A stretch of DNA of 32,000 nucleotides from Candidatus Saccharimonadota bacterium (GTDB taxonomy: Bacteria; Patescibacteriota; Saccharimonadia; Saccharimonadales; UBA4665): NCBI GenBank assembly GCA_963716945.1, contig OY970322.1:420001-452000 (forward strand), in the 5' to 3' direction. The translations under genes were made by a program, and so were the position numbers. Below are positions 338 through 25,193 of the stretch, piece after piece (within the stretch, counting starts at the first letter, position 1; each line of letters opens with the position of its first letter). Under the pieces are notes generated by a model. That model worked only from the letters and a program-made list of their open reading frames with translations. It was not told the DNA's origin and made no database searches.

Positions 338-454
338 TGATTGGTGCCCATAGCCCGAGGGCAACACCTGTTCCCATGCCGAACACAGCAGTTAAGCCTC
401 GGAGCGGTTACAATACTTGGGGTCCACCCCTGGGAAAATAGCACGGTGCCAAAT
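338..454 (+). rRNA. rrf: 5S rRNA
   Basis: CCCATGCCGAACACAGCAGTTAAGCC matches the conserved 5S loop B/helix III region. The terminal helix TTGGTGCC / GGTGCCAA closes the molecule. It lies downstream of the 23S end. ORF 341-568 is an artefact of this gene. Confidence 0.9.
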
Positions 455-6064: not shown

Positions 6065-6778
6065 ATGTTAAAAATCGATAACAGTTTACTGGTTGAGATC
6101 GGTCTGGGCAGCCTGCCCGAAGCCGAGAAGAATAATTTCCTCAAACACATCTACGAAACCCTGGAGATGCGGGTCGGTGTCCGCCTGGCCGACCAAATGA
6201 CCAACCAGCAGCTTGACGAGTTTGAGCGTTACTTCGAGGCCAAAGATGACGCCGGCGCTTTCAAATGGCTGGAGACCAACTTCCCGAACTACAAGGAAAT
6301 CGTCCAGCAGGAATTCGACAAGCTCAAGGCCGAGGTCGCCCAGTCGGCACCGCAAATCCTGGCCACCAGCCAGGGCGGCCAGCCCCAGGCGCCGCCGCAG
6401 GCCCAGTTCCAGACTCCGGTCCAGCCCCAAGCCCAGGTATCAACGCCGCCCCAGCCAGCTTTTCAGCAGGCACCGGCACCGGCGGCCCCCCCTCAGCCGC
6501 AGTCGTCTTTTGGCCAGCCCCAGCAGCCCTTGGCTCCGCCGCCCGTAGCCCCGCCGACCCCGGGTTTCAGTGCGCCTGCGCCGTTGCCGCCTTCGCCGCC
6601 CCAGCAACCGCAGCCTTATAGCGGCCAGCCCCAGCCGGCCGCGCCGCCGCAACCGTCACCGTTCCCCAGTCCTGCCCCGAACCCTATGCCTGACCCGGGT
6701 CCGGCCCCGGTCCAGCCCCAGGCGCCGCCGTTTCCGCAGCAGCAGCCGCCCGCCGGACCGCCCGCCCAGCAGTTCTAG
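6065..6778 (+). CDS. DUF5663-like protein with a long Pro/Gln-rich low-complexity C-terminal half
   Basis: The N-terminus MLKIDNSLLVEIGLGSLPEAEKNNFLKHIYETLEMRVG resembles the DUF5663 proteins I recall from Saccharibacteria (from memory, unverified). Residues ~100-237 are PQ-rich. Confidence 0.65.
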   Translation: MLKIDNSLLVEIGLGSLPEAEKNNFLKHIYETLEMRVGVRLADQMTNQQLDEFERYFEAKDDAGAFKWLETNFPNYKEIVQQEFDKLKAEVAQSAPQILATSQGGQPQAPPQAQFQTPVQPQAQVSTPPQPAFQQAPAPAAPPQPQSSFGQPQQPLAPPPVAPPTPGFSAPAPLPPSPPQQPQPYSGQPQPAAPPQPSPFPSPAPNPMPDPGPAPVQPQAPPFPQQQPPAGPPAQQF

Positions 6779-17926: not shown

Positions 17927-20782
17927 ATGGCACAGACAACCAGCTTAGGGGTAGCACGGCTTTTTACCCCCGCGAAAAGTAAGGCGTACGACCAGCTCAA
18001 ATGGACGAAGCGCGACTCTATTATTAAGAACCCGATGAACGACACCCCTGTATTCGAGCAGAAAGGCGTCGAATTTCCTGAAGGCTGGTCGCTTAATGCC
18101 GTCAACATAGTGGCCCAGAAATATTTCACCGGCACCCCCGGTTCCAAAGAGCGCGAGAGCTCTTTGCGCCACCTGATCGACAGGGTAGTCGACACCGTTA
18201 CCCGCCAGGGCGTCCAAGAGGGTTACTTCAGCAGCGAAACCGAGGCCGAAGACTTCCGAGAAGAACTCAAGTACATCTTGGCGACCCAGCGGGCGGCTTT
18301 CAACAGCCCGGTCTGGTTCAATATCGGCGTGCCGGAGCGCGCCCAGCAGGCCAGCGCCTGTTTCATCCTCGGCATCGAAGACACCATGCCGTCGATTCTT
18401 AATTGGTACGTCGAAGAAGGCATGATCTTCAAGGGCGGTTCCGGCTCGGGCATTAACATCAGCCCGATCAGGTCTTCCGTCGAACGCCTCGGCAAGAGCG
18501 CCGGTACGGCCAGCGGCCCCTTGAGCTTCATGCGCGGCGCCGACGCCAGCGCCGGAGCGATTAAGAGCGGCGGCAAGACCCGCCGGGCAGCCAAGATGGT
18601 CATCCTCAATGTCGACCACCCCGATGTCATGGAATTCATCTGGAGCAAAGCCATCGAAGAGCGCAAAGCCCGCGACCTCCAGACCCTGGGCTGGGACATG
18701 AGCCTTGACGGCAAGGACAGCTTCAGCGTCCAGTACCAGAACGCTAACATTTCAGTCCGCGTTACCGACGACTTCATGCAAGCCGTCCAGGACGACGATG
18801 ACTGGGACCTGCGCGCCGTTACTACGGGCAAGAGCATCAAGAAGGTCAAAGCCCGCGACCTGTTCCGGCAATTCGCCGAAGCCGCCTGGGAGTGTGCCGA
18901 CCCCGGCATGCAGTTCGACACCACCATCAACAAATGGCACACCACCCCGGTCGCCGGACGCATTAACGGCTCCAACCCTTGCAGCGAATACATGCACTTG
19001 GATAACTCGGCCTGCAACCTGGCCAGCATCAACTTGCTGAAGTTCCTCAAAGACGACAATACCTTTGACATCAAGGCTTTCATGCACACCACCGAGCTGA
19101 TTTTCACCGCCCAGGAAATCCTGGTCGGCTACAGCGAATACCCGACCGAGTCTATCGGCAAGAACGCCAAGGCCTACCGCGAACTCGGTATCGGTTACGC
19201 CAACATCGGCGCTTTGCTGATGGCTTTGGGTTTGCCCTATGACTCTGACGAGGGCCGGGCCATCGCGGCCGCCATCACGGCGCTGCTGACCGGTCATTCC
19301 TACGCTACCAGCGCCAAGATTGCCAACCGTGTCGGGCCGTTCAGCGGTTTCGCCAAGGACCGCGAGGGCATGTTGAACGTGCTGCGCATGCACCGGGCCG
19401 AAGTTTCCAAGATTGACGCCAGCCTGGTACCCGAAGAGTTGCTCAGCGCGGCCGCCAGCGCGTGGGACGAAGCTGTCGAACTGGGCGAACTGTACGGTGT
19501 CCGCAACAGCCAGGCCAGCGTTTTGGCGCCGACTGGCACCATCGGCCTGATGATGGATTGTGACACCACCGGTATCGAACCCGACCTTGGCTTGGTTAAA
19601 GTCAAGAAACTGGTCGGCGGCGGTACCATGAGCATCGTCAACCAAACCGTGCCGCGCGCCCTGAAGATCCTGGGCTACACCAAGCCCCAGATCGATGCTA
19701 TCGTCGCTTACATCGACGAAGAGAAGACCATTCTAGGCGCGCCGGCCCTCAAGCGGGAACACGAGGCCGTCTTCGCCTGCTCGATGGGCGACAACTCGAT
19801 CCACTACCTGGGCCACGTCAAGATGATGGCCGCCGTCCAGCCTTTCCTGTCCGGCGCTATCAGCAAGACCGTCAACATGCCCGAAGAAGCCACCGTCGAA
19901 GACATCGAACAGATCCACATCGACGCCTGGAAGATGGGCCTCAAGGCCGTGGCTATTTACCGCGACAACTGCAAGGTCGCCCAGCCGCTCAGCATGGCCA
20001 AGAAGGCCGGTGCTCCGGAGGCCCAGCCGGCTACCGCCGCTGCCGCGACTCCGGTCGAAGCTACCGAAGCCGTCAATGACAAGTATGTCGTCAAAGGCAC
20101 CATCCGCCGCGAACTGCCGAAGTCACGCAACGCCAGGACGATCGCTTTCAAGGTCGCCGGCAGCAAGGGCTACGTCACCGTCGGTGAATTCGAAGACGGC
20201 ACCCCCGGCGAAGTCTTCATCAAGATCGCCAAGCAAGGTTCCACCTTGGCCGGCATCATGGACTCCCTGGCTATCTCGATCAGCTACGGTTTGCAGTACG
20301 GCGTGCCCCTCAAGAGTTACGTCCACGGCCTGACCAGCATGTCTTTCGCGCCGGCCGGCATCACCGATGATCCCGAAATCCGGACGGCTTCCAGCTTGGT
20401 AGATTACGTTTTCCGCCGCCTGGCGCTGAGCTACCTGAGTTTCGACGATTTGCTGGAACTCGGCATGGCCTCTATCGATGATATGCCTACCGACAGCCAG
20501 ACCAGCCTGCTGGCCGAAAGCGACCTTCTGACCGAAGATCCGGTAGTCGCCGCCGAAACCAAGACCGAGGCCCCGTCCGCGGCTGCCGCCCAGCCGGCAC
20601 CTTCGATTAGCTCTGCCGCTCCCCGGACACCGGAGGCCCCGGCCTCGCTATCCGTTAAGAAACCGGCCGCCGTCAAAAGAGACGACACCGCGCCCATCTG
20701 TTACAACTGTGGCAACCAAACCCAGCGCGCCGGCAGCTGCTACGTCTGCACCTCCTGCGGCTCCACCACCGGCTGCAGCTAA
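17927..20782 (+). CDS. nrdJ: Adenosylcobalamin-dependent ribonucleotide reductase, class II
   Basis: RNR barrel motifs (SNPCSEY, CNLASINL), length 951 aa, and the C-terminal CYNCG...CYVCTSCG zinc/redox tail typical of NrdJ. It is co-oriented directly after nrdR. Confidence 0.95.
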   Translation: MAQTTSLGVARLFTPAKSKAYDQLKWTKRDSIIKNPMNDTPVFEQKGVEFPEGWSLNAVNIVAQKYFTGTPGSKERESSLRHLIDRVVDTVTRQGVQEGYFSSETEAEDFREELKYILATQRAAFNSPVWFNIGVPERAQQASACFILGIEDTMPSILNWYVEEGMIFKGGSGSGINISPIRSSVERLGKSAGTASGPLSFMRGADASAGAIKSGGKTRRAAKMVILNVDHPDVMEFIWSKAIEERKARDLQTLGWDMSLDGKDSFSVQYQNANISVRVTDDFMQAVQDDDDWDLRAVTTGKSIKKVKARDLFRQFAEAAWECADPGMQFDTTINKWHTTPVAGRINGSNPCSEYMHLDNSACNLASINLLKFLKDDNTFDIKAFMHTTELIFTAQEILVGYSEYPTESIGKNAKAYRELGIGYANIGALLMALGLPYDSDEGRAIAAAITALLTGHSYATSAKIANRVGPFSGFAKDREGMLNVLRMHRAEVSKIDASLVPEELLSAAASAWDEAVELGELYGVRNSQASVLAPTGTIGLMMDCDTTGIEPDLGLVKVKKLVGGGTMSIVNQTVPRALKILGYTKPQIDAIVAYIDEEKTILGAPALKREHEAVFACSMGDNSIHYLGHVKMMAAVQPFLSGAISKTVNMPEEATVEDIEQIHIDAWKMGLKAVAIYRDNCKVAQPLSMAKKAGAPEAQPATAAAATPVEATEAVNDKYVVKGTIRRELPKSRNARTIAFKVAGSKGYVTVGEFEDGTPGEVFIKIAKQGSTLAGIMDSLAISISYGLQYGVPLKSYVHGLTSMSFAPAGITDDPEIRTASSLVDYVFRRLALSYLSFDDLLELGMASIDDMPTDSQTSLLAESDLLTEDPVVAAETKTEAPSAAAAQPAPSISSAAPRTPEAPASLSVKKPAAVKRDDTAPICYNCGNQTQRAGSCYVCTSCGSTTGCS

Positions 20783-20797
20783 GAGACTTTAGCTAGC

Positions 20798-21064
20798 TTA
20801 AGCCGCGATTTCAGAACCTATAACCTGAGCTACCGCTTCAAAGCCGGACGTTAAGCTAACCGCATTACTTACTACGGTCGTGCCTAAATTGGCTGATGCC
20901 GTACTCACAGGGTATGCGCCTAGTCTGTAGCCGCCATCCATCGGTGTATCGGCGCAAGCCATAGCCGTTTCAATGGCTTTATGGATAGTAGCGTTGTATT
21001 GACCGGTGTGGTCGGCAAATGATCTGACACCGGTGTAAAAATCAATATCTTCTTGGACTGCCAT
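20798..21064 (-). CDS. Hypothetical protein B, 88 aa (second gene of the attenuator-controlled operon)
   Basis: Perfect SD AAGGAG 6 nt upstream of ATG 21064. A/T-ending codon usage. The C-terminal half is rich in small residues. No family recognised. Confidence 0.7.
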   Translation of the reverse strand: MAVQEDIDFYTGVRSFADHTGQYNATIHKAIETAMACADTPMDGGYRLGAYPVSTASANLGTTVVSNAVSLTSGFEAVAQVIGSEIAA

Positions 21065-21108
21065 TTTTGACTCCTTTTAGTTTAGTTAATTTTAGATATA
21101 TATGTTCG

Positions 21109-21495
21109 CTAAGCCGGTCTATCTGTAAACCACCGCATGCGCTTAGCCCTTTCGGCAGCCCCTTCTTCGGGGATAGCCATAATGGTTCGGGCCGGCTCGC
21201 CCTGATCGGCTTTACCGGGGTCGACTCTGGCGCCCAAACCGGCAAAGACTATCTCGGCCGCAAGGTATACGTCTTCAAGATCGGGATCTCGCAAAGCCGC
21301 TTCTTTAAGTTCGTCATTGCTGTGCTCACCAGGCAGCTGGACGTGCAGCTGGAACTTATATTCCTGACCGCCCAGAACCTCGTCAACTGCCGCACGCGCC
21401 ATTGCGAAATCAACGTCAGTCCGGCTTCTGGTTTCAAAGCTCGACGAAGACGCCCCATAAGGATTGGCCGATAATTCTGATCGAATAGCTCCCAT
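21109..21495 (-). CDS. Hypothetical protein A, 128 aa (first gene of the attenuator-controlled operon)
   Basis: SD GGAAGGA sits just upstream of ATG 21495 (the track start, TTG 21507, lies inside the SD/terminator tail). The protein is acidic and soluble-looking. The competing + strand ORF 21067-21474 has a mirror-frame composition. Confidence 0.65.
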   Translation of the reverse strand: MGAIRSELSANPYGASSSSFETRSRTDVDFAMARAAVDEVLGGQEYKFQLHVQLPGEHSNDELKEAALRDPDLEDVYLAAEIVFAGLGARVDPGKADQGEPARTIMAIPEEGAAERAKRMRWFTDRPA

Positions 21496-21508
21496 ATTTC
21501 CTTCCAAA

Positions 21509-21542
21509 ATTAAAAAAATCAGGTTTCGGTTGAAGCCTGATT
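21509..21542 (-). terminator. Intrinsic terminator inside the leader, immediately upstream of the SD of CDS 21109-21495
   Basis: - strand AAUCAGGCUUC-AACC-GAAACCUGAUU (11-bp stem with one G.U pair) followed by UUUUUUUAAUUUU. The ATG is 17 nt after the U run. Confidence 0.75.
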
Positions 21543-21669
21543 ACTTTGCCGGGTTGTGCTGGAGCCGCGTTATTAAGCGCGGGCTAGGCTTCAACCATGG
21601 TGAAGCACAACCCCGTAAGGTTGAGGAGGAGTTGTTCCGACCGGTGCTTCATGGTTTTAGCCATATCAA
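21509..21669 (-). promoter_or_regulatory. ~160-nt cis-regulatory leader RNA (terminator/antiterminator switch; class unknown)
   Basis: GGUUGAAGCCU (21596-21586) is 11/11 complementary to AGGCUUCAACC (21538-21528) in the terminator. Alternative helices are GCUUCA/UGAAGC, GGGUUGUGCU (21613-21604) with AGCACAACCC (21560-21551), and CCAUG-AAGCAC with GUGCUU..CAUGG. See findings. Confidence 0.6.
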
Positions 21670-21675
21670 GTATCT

Positions 21676-21704
21676 TTTATAGCACAGGCAGCCCAGCCAT
21701 ACAA
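21676..21704 (-). promoter_or_regulatory. Promoter of the leader and two-gene operon
   Basis: - strand TTGTAT (21704-21699), 17-nt spacer, TATAAA (21681-21676). Confidence 0.6.
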
Positions 21705-21772
21705 GCCTGGGCGTCCGGCGCGTTGTAATATTTTAAAAGCCGCCATCAGGCTTATGCTAAACTGGACTTATC

Positions 21773-22039
21773 ATGAAAGTGCTTATTCTGTACCGGCCCA
21801 ATTCCGAGCATGGCAGGACGATAGAGGAGTTTATCCATGAATACCAGCGACGGCACCAGTCGGACCGCCTCGAAGTACTCAGTATCGATACCAGGGAGGG
21901 CAGTGCCACGGCCACGCTTTACGACGTCGTCCAGTATCCGGCCATCCTGGTTCTGGAGACAGACGGTTACGTTCAGAAGATCTGGCAGGGCGACAGCTTG
22001 CCGATGATGGACGAGGTCGCCTCTTACGCCCACGTCTAA
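21773..22039 (+). CDS. Small hypothetical protein, 88 aa, possibly thioredoxin-like fold without CxxC
   Basis: The beta-alpha-beta start MKVLILYRPNSEH and YPAILVLE resemble a Trx/glutaredoxin-like fold, but no redox cysteines are present. The functional call is weak. Confidence 0.6.
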   Translation: MKVLILYRPNSEHGRTIEEFIHEYQRRHQSDRLEVLSIDTREGSATATLYDVVQYPAILVLETDGYVQKIWQGDSLPMMDEVASYAHV

Positions 22040-22069
22040 GCTTGTGCTATAGTTAGGGTACAATTTGGC

Positions 22070-22250
22070 AAATCCGTAAGAGCGGCTATCAACCGCGAGG
22101 AGCGGGAAGAAAGGCTGATAAGGCCCAGTAGAACCCGCCGGGCAAGCCCGTTACAGCTGAAACCAAGCGCTTTTGAGGTCACCTCGAAGGAAACCGGATG
22201 GCACCGTCCTGCACCAGGACTCCGGTAACCGACAGGTGATTTTTATTTAC
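22070..22250 (+). promoter_or_regulatory. T-box riboswitch leader (Ile specifier) of ileS
   Basis: Antiterminator-type element: helix CCGGA (22194-22198) / TCCGG (22221-22225), 7-nt bulge TGGCACC (22199-22205), and helix GTCCTG / CAGGAC with loop CAC. The sequence AACCGGATGGCACCGTC resembles the T-box consensus AAnnnGGGUGGUACCGCG. The hairpin GCGG-CTATCAA-CCGC (22082-22096) displays AUC followed by A. A U tract lies at 22240-22249. Confidence 0.7.
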
Positions 22251-22271
22251 AACAGGGGACGCCAACAACGC

Positions 22272-25193
22272 ATGAAATTCAAGCAATCCACCCGCCGCCA
22301 GCCCGCCGTCTACGAGAAGGACCTGGTGCAATACTGGAAGCAGCACCGGACTTTTGAGAAGTCGGTCGAGTCGCGGCCGGCCGCCGACGCCTACGTTTTC
22401 TATGACGGGCCGCCGTTCATCACCGGCGTGCCGCATGTCGGCACGCTGTTATCGAGCATTATCAAGGACGCCGTCCCGCGCTACTGGACGATGAAGGGCA
22501 AGCGCGTCGAACGCGTCTGGGGCTGGGATTGCCACGGCCTGCCGGCCGAAGTTTTCACCGAGCAGAAGCTGGGCATCCACGACCGGCGCGACATCGGTAC
22601 CAAAGTCAGTCTCGAGGAATACATTCTGACTTGCCGCGCCAACATGGTCCAGACCGGCAACGAGTGGGAGGACGTCATCGACCGTATCGGCCGCTGGGTC
22701 GATTTCCGGGGCGCTTATAAGACAATGGACAAAGATTACATGGAATCCGTCTGGTGGGCCTTCAAACAGCTCTATGAGGCCGGTAAGATCTACGAGGGCG
22801 AGAAAGTACTGCTGTACTGTGTCCGCGACGCCACGCCGATCAGCAAAGCCGAAGTCGCCATGGACAACTCCTACCAGGACGTCACCGACCCGAGCGTGTA
22901 CGTCAAGCTCAAGCTCAAGGACAGCGACGCCTCGCTGCTGGCCTGGACGACGACCCCTTGGACTTTGCCGGCCAACACCGCTGCCGCCGTTAATGCCGCC
23001 GAAACCTACGCCGAAGTCAGGGTCGGGGACGAGACCCTAATTATCGCCGAGGAGCTCGTACCAAAAGTATTAACCGATGAAAAACACCAGCCGCTAACCT
23101 ACGAAACCCTACGTACCTACAAGGGCCAAGACCTGGTCGGCAAAGGCTACGAACCGCTCTTCGAAGACCGCGGCCGCAACGCCCACCGGGTCTGGGCCGC
23201 CGACTACGTTACCTTAGAAGAGGGCACCGGCATCGTCCACCTGGCCCCGGCTTACGGCGAAGAAGATTACTGGCTGTCGAGGCAGGAAGGCTTCCCGCTG
23301 GTCCAGAACCTCGACGACAGCGGTTTCTACACCGAAGGCGAGTGGCAGGGCCAGTACGTTTGGGACGCCAACAAGCCGATCGCCAAGACCCTCCACGAAC
23401 GCGGCGTTATCTGGAAAATCGACTACATCACGCACAGCTACCCCCATTGCCACCGCTGCGGTACCAAACTGATGTACCGCGCCCACCCCAGTTGGTTTAT
23501 GGATATAAACGGCCAGCGCGAGCAAATGCTCGCGCAAAACGCCTCGGTCAACTGGTTCCCGGCCCACATCAAACAGGGCCGTTTCGCCAAAACCGTCGAA
23601 TCGGCGCCGGACTGGAACATCAGCCGCGACCGCTTCTGGGCGACGGCCATGCCGGTCTGGAAAGGCACCGATAAGAGTGGTAAAGAGCACATCAAGGTCA
23701 TCGGCAGCTACGCCGAGCTCAAGGAGTTATCAGGTAAAGAGCTGGAAGATTACCACCGGCCCTGGATTGACGATGTAGCCTTCACAATAGACGGCGTTGA
23801 ATACAAACGTATCGACAAGGTTTTGGACTGCTGGTTCGAGAGCGGCTCGATGCCGTTCGCCCAATTCCATTACCCGTTCGAGAACACCGACAAGTTCGAG
23901 CAGAATTTCCCCGGTGATTTCATTGCCGAATATGTCGGCCAAGTCCGCGCCTGGTTCTACTACCTGCACGCCGTCTCGGTCGGCCTGTTCGATACCAAAG
24001 CTTTCAACAACGTCGTCGTCACCGGTACGCTGGCCGGCAACGACGGCCGCAAGATGAGTAAGAGCTTCGGCAACTACACCGACCCCAACGAACTGATGGA
24101 CAAATACAGCGCCGACGCCCTCAGGTTCCTGCTCCTGGGCTCGCCGGTCTTAAACGGCGAAGACGCCGTCCTCCAAGATAAGGACGTGGCCGATACCAGC
24201 CGCAAACTGGCCATGGTCTGGAACATGTACGACTTCTTCACGCTCTACGCCGACGTCGACGGCTGGGAGTGGGACGGCAGCCTTGAAGACCCGGCGCCGG
24301 ACCTGGGCAACCCGCTTGACCAATGGATCGTCAGCCGCGTCCACCAGCTTAGCGGCGAAGTTGACGGCCACATGCAGCGTTATGACCTGCCGAACGCCCT
24401 CAAGCCCGTCCTGCCGTTCATCGATGACGCCAGCAACTGGTACGTCCGCCGCAGCCGCAAACGTTTCTGGAAGAGCGACAACGACGGCGACAAAGCCGCG
24501 GCCTACCGCACGCTGCACTATGTCCTGGTCCAGCTAAGCCTTATCATGGCGCCGTTCACGCCGTTTATGGCCGAGGAGCTTTATCGCCGGCTGACCGGCG
24601 GCGAATCGGTCCACCTCTGCGACTGGCCGGCCGCCGGCCACGTCAACGAACTGATAATCAAGGACATGGCCAACACGCGGGAAGCGATCACGGTCGGTTT
24701 GGCCCAGCGCGCCCAAGCCGGCCTGAAGGTCCGCCAGCCGCTGGCTTCAGCTACCGTCTTCTGGGACTCTTTCGCCAGCCGGCCGCCGCAGGAGCTGGAC
24801 GAATACCTGGCCGTAATCAGGGAAGAGCTCAACGTCAAAGAAGTTAAGTTCAACCATCTTGAAAACTCTTTGCCCGGCAGCGTATCGGTCAGTCTCGACC
24901 TCAAGCTGACGCCCGAACTCAAGCGCGAAGGCCTGGCCCGCGAAGTCATCCGCCATGTCCAGCAGGCCCGCAAACAGGCCGGCCTCCAGGTCGACGACCG
25001 CATAGACCTCCGTCTTGAGTCCGACAGCCCCCGGCTGCGCGCTTTACTAAAAGACGCCGCTTTAACGGATACGATCAAGCAGGAAACGCTGGCCGTCTCG
25101 CTGAACCGGCACCGGCCGGACGGCTTCACAAGCACCGTACAGGTCGACGGCCACGGCCTTACGCTCAGCTTGGCTAAGGCAAGCAGGCAATAA
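22272..25193 (+). CDS. ileS: Isoleucyl-tRNA synthetase
   Basis: HIGH-type motif (PHVGT), KMSKS, and the class Ia editing and anticodon-binding architecture. The start is taken as ATG 22272 (MKFKQS). The track start at 22173 lies inside the T-box leader. Confidence 0.95.
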   Translation: MKFKQSTRRQPAVYEKDLVQYWKQHRTFEKSVESRPAADAYVFYDGPPFITGVPHVGTLLSSIIKDAVPRYWTMKGKRVERVWGWDCHGLPAEVFTEQKLGIHDRRDIGTKVSLEEYILTCRANMVQTGNEWEDVIDRIGRWVDFRGAYKTMDKDYMESVWWAFKQLYEAGKIYEGEKVLLYCVRDATPISKAEVAMDNSYQDVTDPSVYVKLKLKDSDASLLAWTTTPWTLPANTAAAVNAAETYAEVRVGDETLIIAEELVPKVLTDEKHQPLTYETLRTYKGQDLVGKGYEPLFEDRGRNAHRVWAADYVTLEEGTGIVHLAPAYGEEDYWLSRQEGFPLVQNLDDSGFYTEGEWQGQYVWDANKPIAKTLHERGVIWKIDYITHSYPHCHRCGTKLMYRAHPSWFMDINGQREQMLAQNASVNWFPAHIKQGRFAKTVESAPDWNISRDRFWATAMPVWKGTDKSGKEHIKVIGSYAELKELSGKELEDYHRPWIDDVAFTIDGVEYKRIDKVLDCWFESGSMPFAQFHYPFENTDKFEQNFPGDFIAEYVGQVRAWFYYLHAVSVGLFDTKAFNNVVVTGTLAGNDGRKMSKSFGNYTDPNELMDKYSADALRFLLLGSPVLNGEDAVLQDKDVADTSRKLAMVWNMYDFFTLYADVDGWEWDGSLEDPAPDLGNPLDQWIVSRVHQLSGEVDGHMQRYDLPNALKPVLPFIDDASNWYVRRSRKRFWKSDNDGDKAAAYRTLHYVLVQLSLIMAPFTPFMAEELYRRLTGGESVHLCDWPAAGHVNELIIKDMANTREAITVGLAQRAQAGLKVRQPLASATVFWDSFASRPPQELDEYLAVIREELNVKEVKFNHLENSLPGSVSVSLDLKLTPELKREGLAREVIRHVQQARKQAGLQVDDRIDLRLESDSPRLRALLKDAALTDTIKQETLAVSLNRHRPDGFTSTVQVDGHGLTLSLAKASRQ

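Follow-up and report, generated by a model that had tools for sequence, protein, structure and literature searches.

Two orphan acidic proteins in a hypervariable slot of a Saccharibacteria genome are probably controlled by leucine-responsive leader-peptide attenuation

We analyzed a 32,000-nt stretch of DNA (hereafter, the window) from Candidatus Saccharimonadota bacterium (assembly GCA_963716945.1, contig OY970322.1, positions 420,001 to 452,000), centering on two small genes next to nrdJ, named A and B, and on the leader that precedes them. Gene A runs on the minus strand from an ATG at 21495 to a stop at 21109 (128 aa), and gene B, also on the minus strand, from an ATG at 21064 to a stop at 20798 (88 aa). 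The analysis argues that A and B probably constitute a leucine-limitation-induced module of orphan proteins, controlled by leader-peptide attenuation and housed in a hypervariable slot. A sequence-only reading of the same DNA had proposed a co-directional two-gene unit of proteins without a known family, governed by a dedicated conditional-termination leader that answers a specific signal; both proposals are supported here, and comparison across related loci points to leucine, sensed through Leu-tRNA supply, as the most likely signal. Leucine is indicated by the codon series CTC CTC CTC AAC CTT, by a scaffold that recurs in 25 distinct copies, and by regulatory codons that track the downstream cargo. 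Below, related loci are labelled L and homologue protein clusters are labelled P, each followed by a number.

The leader of A, which like the genes lies on the minus strand, packs a putative promoter, a short open reading frame (ORF) and mutually exclusive RNA pairings into less than 200 nt. The sequence TATAAA (21676-21681), with a TG at 21684-21683, stands 11 nt 5' of the leader-peptide ATG and is the likely promoter -10 box; most of the 25 related leaders have a GTGCTATAAA-type box at a distance of 6-11 nt before their conserved ATG. Because this box is only 11 nt from the ATG, the mRNA is probably leaderless or nearly so. The leader-peptide ORF, MAKTMKHRSEQLLLNLTGLCFTMVEA followed by its stop, spans 21584-21664 (26 codons, with an alternative in-frame start at 21652) and contains the regulatory codons, with the CTC run at 21631-21623 and the CTT at 21619-21617. 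Its distal part takes part in the pairings that follow. The anti-antiterminator helix (21551-21613) joins GGGTTGTGCT (21613-21604) to AGCACAACCC (21560-21551) over 10 bp; within it lie a small GC hairpin (21583-21565) and the antiterminator strand. The antiterminator (21528-21596) pairs GGTTGAAGCC (21596-21587, leader codons 23-26) with the perfectly complementary GGCTTCAACC (21537-21528), which is itself the 5' arm and loop of the intrinsic terminator (21512-21539). The latter has the stem CAGGCTTC/GAAACCTG (21539-21520; 8 bp with one C.A mismatch), the loop AACC and seven T at 21518-21512, and ends 16 nt before the ATG of A; a simple terminator scanner passed over it owing to its stem and loop rules. 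No Rfam 15 family reached its gathering score in the window, and between 20700 and 22250 the sole match at E up to 10 was a chance miRNA model, so no curated covariance model places the leader among T-boxes, riboswitches or the Rfam leader classes.

The leader belongs to a conserved family. A spurious plus-strand ORF over it and another spurious ORF, located upstream of an A homologue with 37% identity, encode an identical peptide; the leader DNA is therefore far better conserved than protein A. A two-block DNA pattern derived from the leader retrieved 28 copies in 26 metagenome loci, and these, together with the window and loci fetched earlier, yielded 25 distinct full-length copies. All 25 share the invariant core TGCTTCACCATGGTTGAAGCC, a terminator of the form CAGGCTTC-AACC-GAAGCCTG with its T-run (96.5% paired), and a Shine-Dalgarno sequence (SD) plus start codon 10-20 nt after that run. 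The leader ORF has kept its frame in every relative, a 6-nt indel notwithstanding, the Leu run of those leaders that have one is conserved via synonymous changes while the surrounding residues vary, and the scaffold also fixes the leader-peptide C-terminus GLCFTMVEA. Across the 25 sequences, 98.4% of cells in the anti-antiterminator helix are paired, with compensatory changes at 4 of the 10 pairs, one of them split into 13 U-A and 12 C-G; no shuffle among 500 attained these values, and pairing in slid controls was 25-50%. The two antiterminator strands (10 nt each) are invariant. A covariance model built from the 25 copies (R1) finds 21509-21640 with 124.6 bits (E=2.6e-38) as the only strong copy in the window. 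The same model gave a weak match at 6065-6142 on the minus strand (14.2 bits, E ~0.014 under a rough calibration), which is probably a terminator-like hairpin.

We modelled the pairing choices with folds truncated before the terminator 3' arm, for three cases: no ribosome, a ribosome at the stop codon, and one on the regulatory codons; these folds replaced equilibrium folds of the whole leader, where the terminator wins in most states. With the ribosome on the regulatory codons, the antiterminator had a predicted probability of 0.90-1.0 in 25 of 25 leaders, and of at least 0.97 in 24 of them. A ribosome at the stop codon covers the antiterminator strand, and the pairing is lost. Where the helix 5' strand is free, the minimum-energy fold contains the anti-antiterminator helix and leaves the terminator arm unpaired, again in all 25. 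The computed pairing thus switches in the expected direction with ribosome position in every leader. Together with an upstream ORF bearing a cluster of codons for one amino acid and an intrinsic terminator, this predicted ribosome-dependent antiterminator supplies the features of a leader-peptide attenuator, and in the folding model the leader is a classical ribosome-mediated attenuator with region 1:2, 2:3 and 3:4 logic.

The regulatory codons follow the cargo. Seventeen distinct leaders carry a block of the form LLL(L)xL (Leu-type), and leuA-type genes follow 11 of these 17. Their products include the classical type, of 535-541 aa, which scores 399-511 bits against NF002086 and so narrowly misses the cut-off of this best-matching NCBIfam model for 2-isopropylmalate synthase; the other types are a divergent one of 520 aa and one of 401 aa. 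The remaining leaders have an Ile/Val-rich block (IIVL, VIIIVL or IIxxI), and among the cargo of this type is a small ORF with ilvB (725 bits to TIGR00118), ilvN, ridA and ilvA behind it. In L094 and L102 the two types occur in one locus, in the order Leu-type leader, A-like gene, B-like gene, Ile-type leader and a 534-aa leuA/cimA-like gene. The sequence-only reading had proposed checking whether homologues of A and B always carry the leader: in all loci that include the upstream DNA (the window, L083-86, L087/88, L089, L094/L102, L097 and L104), A-like and B-like genes stand behind a Leu-type leader. One RNA scaffold is thus reused with exchanged sensor codons, which is strong evidence that sensing is ribosome-mediated and does not work by ligand or protein binding. 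The match between codons and pathway is seen across the family; in the window itself the cargo is A and B only, and leuA is absent within the 32 kb.

Several further arrangements were observed among the attenuator loci. The tandem copies of L094 (219-1046) and L102 (236-1027), a Leu-type followed by an Ile-type, suggest dual amino-acid control, perhaps of a citramalate synthase. In L092 (10024-10565) and L113 (1486-2027) the covariance model places a second copy ~420 nt upstream of the first. Some Ile/Val-type copies (L092/L113, L105, L115 and L111) lack ilv genes and are followed by unrelated small acidic ORFs of 58-104 aa, downstream of which lie ribosomal protein genes (L10, L7/L12, L3). 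In L110 a truncated leader of unassigned type has an isopentenyl-diphosphate isomerase gene downstream of it. Within the locus stretches examined (e.g. L114 887-6525 and L090 1562-4401), the cargo corresponds to the first branched-chain steps (ilvA, ilvBN, leuA-type and ridA genes), and none of ilvC, ilvD, ilvE or leuBCD was seen there.

These data suggest the following mechanism, in which we infer the ribosome-stalling logic, the promoter and the co-transcription of A and B. Transcription would start at the promoter ~11 nt upstream of the leader ATG, and the first ORF to be translated would be the 26-codon leader with its CUC CUC CUC AAC CUU series. When Leu-tRNA is plentiful, the ribosome would reach the UAG stop and cover the strand GGUUGAAGCC; after its release, GGUUGAAGCC would stay locked within the 10-bp anti-antiterminator helix, the terminator at 21539-21512 would form, and transcription would stop before A. 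When Leu-tRNA is scarce, the ribosome would stall on the Leu codons with its leading edge blocking the helix 5' strand; the 5' half of the terminator would then be taken up by pairing with GGUUGAAGCC, letting RNA polymerase continue into A and B. With the enzyme gene absent from the slot in the window, only A and B would remain under leucine control. In the best-supported reading, A and B are thus soluble cytoplasmic proteins produced when leucine-charged tRNA becomes scarce. As a working guess, they would serve in leucine limitation as binding or modulating factors, neither as enzymes nor as a toxin-antitoxin pair.

Both genes have the organization that the sequence-only reading had assigned to them. 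A (isoelectric point 4.74, net charge -8) is preceded by the SD GGAAGGA at 21505-21499 and B (isoelectric point 4.35, net charge -6) by AAGGAG at 21076-21071; they are co-directional and non-overlapping, separated by a 44-nt spacer (21065-21108). A is acidic as described, with a serine-rich GASSSS stretch near its N-terminus and no transmembrane segment (no signal-peptide predictor was run), and small residues dominate the C-terminal half of B. The reported preference for A/T-ending codons also agrees with the G+C content at third codon positions (GC3), which is 0.53 in A and 0.44 in B compared with 0.65-0.80 in ten other genes of the window; overall G+C is ~0.49-0.54 across the A/B region and ~0.60 in the flanks. 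The public record annotates A as a 97-aa protein starting at Met32. The 128-aa form is the preferred call, on sequence grounds, because the alignment to homologue P0004 begins at residue 15 and because the start codons of all A homologues align with the ATG at 21495, directly after terminator and SD.

A and B are genuine genes under purifying selection. The comparison was made with L001, a 1650-nt contig from a related organism (83% DNA identity) that holds B and the last 48 codons of A beside nrdJ. The in-frame ratio of nonsynonymous to synonymous substitution rates (dN/dS, omega) is 0.146 for B and 0.17 for the 48 codons of A, and, of the remaining five frames, four have values of 0.9-1.8 and one, in antisense, has 0.31-0.34. 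Constraint in B is uneven. Residues 1-50 have a dN/dS of 0.037, as constrained as a core enzyme (nrdJ omega 0.017 in the same genome pair, after exclusion of one block misaligned by an indel), and residues 51-84 reach 0.32; this C-terminal half evolves fast and ends at a different stop codon in L001. The spacer between A and B is unconserved apart from the SD. The dS of A and B (0.71-0.76) is comparable to that of nrdJ (0.55), and the pair has therefore been inherited vertically and retained.

This evidence bears on the possibility that the ORFs are spurious, which the sequence-only reading had named as a refuting outcome, or that translation alone matters, through protection from Rho or delivery of ribosomes to a downstream gene. 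That many attenuator copies precede a different, unrelated small acidic ORF (58-128 aa), and that very few homologues exist among 15 billion proteins, would fit such an account. It is nevertheless extremely unlikely, given the gap between in-frame values (0.04-0.17) and those of most other frames and the retention of protein motifs at 27-42% identity where the DNA no longer aligns. There is also no downstream gene to couple, as nrdJ is convergent and lies 15 nt after B. The interval between the two stops (20783-20800) showed no terminator, only the palindrome AGCTAGCT, and the nrdJ and B transcripts may each run antisense into the other gene.

The proteins themselves proved as unrecognizable as had been claimed. 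Neither A nor B matched Pfam, NCBIfam, PADLOC or PDB sequences, PHROGs returned nothing significant (one match at E=0.1), and searches of Pfam, NCBIfam, PADLOC and PDB with profiles of the two families were empty or at chance level. An exhaustive HMMER search over 1.84 billion representatives recovered four true clusters of A homologues (P0004, P0005, P0007 and P0009; 128, 124, 91 and 81 aa) with 36-47% identity over the matched stretches, and a further A-like member of 80 aa occurs in L094/L102. Two other clusters, P0006 and P0008, were rejected as eukaryotic repeat proteins whose scores were inflated by repeats. A word-indexed protein search matched A only to itself and B to itself and one homologue, and a profile search found nothing beyond the exhaustive matches. 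The A family shares the motifs PxEH, DPxFED, AxE, GA, GE and IP and an invariant C-terminus, F-[ST]-[ND]-R-P-A-stop; its EHS..DPxFEDxxxAxE module is present twice in the long forms, including A of the window, and once in the short ones.

The B family has five members, on which jackhmmer converges from two different seeds: B of the window (88 aa), P0003/L001 (77% identity), and proteins of 74 aa in L094/L102, 73 aa in L104 and 111 aa in L097. Their core reads [IVM]-[HR]-[KR]-A-x3-A-x4-D-T-P-[LM]-[DN]-[GS]-[GE]-[YF]; for the conserved residues 1-50 of B it can be given more narrowly as I-[HR]-[KR]-A-x3-A-x4-D-T-P-[LM]-[DN]-G-G-[YF]. BLASTP against the L094 pair gave 2e-6 for A and 4e-7 for B, a metagenome scan with peptide patterns from B found no match, and hhalign showed A and B to be unrelated to each other. 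All members of both families are strongly acidic (net charge -4 to -10), and none has a hydrophobic segment. Judged from these searches, A and B each appear to belong to a tiny family restricted to one Saccharibacteria clade. B contains 3.4% Leu, neither A nor B uses CTC, and other family members have 5-7% Leu; with these relatives, and with the lack of CTC confounded by low GC3, we do not claim leucine depletion. The 111-aa B-like protein of L097 (6152-6487, minus strand) ends in ...MERPA and the first ORF of L107 (895-1251, plus strand; 118 aa, unrelated) in ...NLPA, ends that recall the ...RPA-stop of the A family. A PYSG-x-E motif is common to small proteins of L097, L104 and L107, and these proteins may be mosaics of shared short modules.

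The sequence-only reading had considered a toxin-antitoxin (TA) or effector-immunity pair, in which one small protein is harmful and the other neutralizes it. Like type II TA modules, A (128 aa) and B (88 aa) are small, adjacent and co-directional and sit in a variable location, here a lineage-specific one; their low GC3 and their recurrence as a pair in L094/L102 would also fit. In classical type II modules the antitoxin is acidic and its toxin partner basic or neutral. Here, both products are strongly acidic, as are all their relatives, and neither the proteins nor their family profiles revealed a recognizable toxin, antitoxin or DNA-binding domain in Pfam, NCBIfam, PADLOC or PDB. Pairing is also not obligate: asked whether the genes always co-occur, the loci answer no, with A lacking B in two lineages (L083-86 and L087/88) and a B-like gene lacking A in two others (L097 and L104). 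The genes lie 44 nt apart rather than overlapping, control appears to be exerted by an amino-acid attenuator and not by autorepression, and there is no transmembrane segment or secretion-associated domain. Phage, plasmid and viral relatives, flanking repeats and any mobile-element association were likewise not found, and in sister strains the slot holds a biosynthetic-type gene. A TA or effector-immunity pair is thus very unlikely, and the earlier suggestion finds no support.

The location of the pair is informative in its own right. The slot (20783-21772, 990 nt) extends from the nrdJ stop to the start of a trx-like gene and contains the putative promoter, the attenuator, A and B. The genes had been described as wedged between nrdJ and ileS, which holds on the nrdJ side; the other neighbor is the trx-like gene (21773-22039, plus strand, 88 aa), which precedes ileS, lies outside the operon and marks the slot edge. 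Its product has weak thioredoxin-fold matches below cut-off and no cysteine, and therefore cannot be a redox-active thioredoxin; the gene is conserved beside ileS in all relatives examined. In 11 other Saccharibacteria species (nrdJ 71-76% identical), nrdJ, a gap of 30-251 nt, the trx-like gene and ileS follow each other on one strand, and the nrdJ loci of these species contain neither A, nor B, nor the leader. About a dozen metagenome loci (nrdJ 78-98% identical) carry a Leu-type cassette in the same slot, oriented convergently with nrdJ and divergently from the trx-like gene.

What the cassette carries changes between close relatives. Sister strains have A with leuA, A-B with a second attenuator and a leuA-like gene, a lone B-like gene, or a lone leuA. 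L001, L102 and L097 have nrdJ genes 95-98% identical to that of the window, and their slots hold, respectively, A-B with 77% identity to the window pair, A-B with 27-30% identity followed by a second attenuator and a leuA-like gene, and a single 111-aa B-like protein with 24% identity to B. In L083 a leuA gene takes the exact place of B, its end abutting the 3' end of nrdJ. Between types, the leuA-type enzymes of the slot share only 25-38% identity. The window has A and B without an enzyme gene, and neither a leuA- nor an ilvB-type gene was found in its 32 kb. The cargo turns over far more quickly than the flanking DNA, a pattern that resembles the replacement of cassettes within a hypervariable slot. 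The insert is not bordered by terminal repeats, direct or inverted, and nothing therefore points to a transposon or a miniature inverted-repeat transposable element. The 990-nt insert had no blastn match among phages and plasmids, and scans of viral contigs with the A and B family profiles found no match.

The neighborhood yielded several side observations. NrdJ residues 816-951 (20372-20782, plus strand), an Ala/Pro-rich linker and a Cys-rich ribbon, are 78-81% identical between strains whose first 815 residues are 95-98% identical; this tail abuts the variable slot and may mark a recombination boundary, or it may just be a linker that evolves fast. For ileS the longest ORF begins with a TTG at 22173, and relatives align only from about residue 34, where an ATG lies at 22272; starting there, ileS would leave ~230 nt untranslated (22040-22271, plus strand). 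No T-box or other Rfam family was found upstream of ileS up to 22250. The window begins with Rfam matches to the 23S rRNA 3' end (1-104) and a 5S rRNA gene (340-454, plus strand).

The frequent company of leuA raises the question of whether A and B are leftover accessories of a lost leuA operon, partners or modulators of the LeuA-type enzyme or of a copy elsewhere in the genome, which would persist in the slot only because its enzyme gene was recently deleted. A directly precedes leuA in L083-86 and L087/88, A-B lies upstream of the leuA-like gene in L094/L102, and L083 has leuA where the window, itself without leuA, has B. Still, purifying selection has maintained A and B since the window and L001 lineages diverged (dS ~0.7), and neither locus has leuA between B and nrdJ. 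Orthologous leuA genes occur both with A (L088) and without it (L093, L096 and L100), and the A and B profiles have no similarity to any LeuA sequence. In L094/L102, moreover, the Ile-type attenuator separates A-B from the enzyme gene, so the pair there is a regulatory unit of its own. We regard the leftover explanation as unlikely, while giving it some weight. The narrower idea that B is a relic of leuA was rejected, as comparing B with the L083 leuA region showed no similarity in either protein or DNA.

The rapid turnover of cargo could also reflect rapidly diversifying interaction proteins, acidic mimics or inhibitors of basic nucleic-acid-binding or ribosomal proteins with targets in the host, in phage or in the cell itself. 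The slot would then be a recombination hot spot and the attenuator a mere starvation-responsive promoter. Cargo turns over drastically between strains with nrdJ 95-98% identical, all members are strongly acidic, GC3 is low, and the C-terminal half of B evolves fast (omega 0.32). Saccharibacteria are generally described as obligate epibionts, a lifestyle that would suit such proteins. Set against this are the first 50 residues of B, constrained like a core enzyme (omega 0.037), the lack of any match to defence-system models and of viral relatives, and the lack of direct evidence for any target; nor was a secretion signal or transmembrane segment recorded (no signal-peptide predictor having been run). 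This explanation appears quite improbable.

A related and speculative reading, to which we assign a low probability, takes A, B and the other small acidic ORFs behind attenuator copies as a starvation-triggered effector class of an obligate epibiont. Such effectors could be induced by amino-acid shortage, reside in a recombination-prone slot and diversify through a variable partner, with the host, a phage, or the translation or nucleoid apparatus of the cell itself as candidates.

Several points weigh against a leucine-limitation-induced module controlled by attenuation. The attenuation logic is computational. Within it, the invariance of the antiterminator strands leaves that pairing without support from covariation; untranslated RNA at equilibrium favors the antiterminator, unlike in the textbook trp model, so that termination is not clearly predicted for this state; and equilibrium folds that include the full terminator favor the terminator in most states, so that kinetics must decide. 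When the stalled ribosome has Leu13 or Leu14 in its P site, a footprint of standard size reaches only the first bases of the helix 5' strand, and the predicted switch therefore depends on few nucleotides. On the side of the cargo, neither the slot nor the 32-kb window has a leuA-type gene that would account for leucine control of A and B. Selection was measured in a single close genome pair (window and L001), and for A it covers the last 48 codons, the N-terminal 80 residues lying beyond the end of the L001 contig. The homology of B beyond L001 rests on a core of ~20 residues and shared position. AlphaFold2 models of A (pLDDT 36.7, single sequence) and B (pLDDT 45.5, two sequences) were too poor for a fold search and are thus uninformative about fold or function.

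Among known systems, the enterobacterial leaders of leu (leuL), trp, his, ilvGMEDA and ilvBN provide the closest mechanistic likeness. As in the present leader, a short ORF upstream of the genes contains a codon run for the amino acid under control, the anti-antiterminator, antiterminator and terminator exclude one another, and an intrinsic terminator stands just before the first structural gene; as in the sister loci, the cargo is biosynthetic and cognate. Unlike in the enterobacterial leaders, however, the transcript here is probably leaderless, and one invariant scaffold is reused with Leu or Ile/Val codons before different operons; there is no sequence relationship and no Rfam match. The window further differs in its cargo of two orphan proteins without an enzyme and in an untranslated state that is not clearly terminating. 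In Actinobacteria, terminators accompany the leader peptides of ilvB (Seliverstov et al. 2005, PMC1262725), and peptides with Leu runs or Ile/Val/Leu runs stand upstream of leuA and ilvB genes, much as here (PMC1262725). In the actinobacterial LEU element at leuA, a base stem pairs the Leu-codon run with the leuA SD, a pseudoknot forms and there is no terminator (PMC1262725); going by that description, it is set apart from the present leader, which has a terminator and antiterminator and a covarying helix 3' of the Leu codons. The contig of the window has its closest relatives among Candidatus Saccharibacteria, and in a genome-collection scan the closest nrdJ matches outside Saccharibacteria were from Actinomycetota.

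The nearest counterpart of the whole unit is that of L094/L102 (Ga0209483_1022687 and Ga0075522_10004089), which occupies the same slot behind a Leu-type leader, with an A-like gene (80 aa) followed by a B-like gene (74 aa). It differs from the window unit in the low identity of its proteins (27-30%, though nrdJ is 96% identical), in an A protein with one repeat module instead of two, and in the Ile-codon attenuator and 534-aa leuA/cimA-like gene that follow, which the window does not have. Full-text literature searches returned no paper linking Saccharibacteria with leader-peptide attenuation or isopropylmalate synthase.

The usual picture of Saccharibacteria and other bacteria of the candidate phyla radiation (CPR) is one of missing amino-acid biosynthesis and sparse dedicated regulation. 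The system described here is a familiar switch with an unusual, reusable scaffold and an unusual cargo, two orphan proteins, in a hypervariable CPR slot. It indicates that one CPR clade uses textbook ribosome-mediated attenuation and that the same RNA scaffold is re-programmed by swapping its regulatory codons. This scaffold controls a slot that varies between near-identical strains and holds leuA-type enzymes of several deep lineages or orphan acidic proteins. For annotation, the analysis contributes a corrected start for A, two new small protein families and a covariance model for an attenuator family without an Rfam 15 counterpart. With the sensor kept and controlling only two orphan proteins, A and B are candidates for a response to leucine limitation other than biosynthesis. 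Were the effector reading true, the attenuator scaffold would be a plug-in sensor for different amino acids. Leucine control of A and B would help to explain how an amino-acid-dependent epibiont senses and reacts to the supply from its host.

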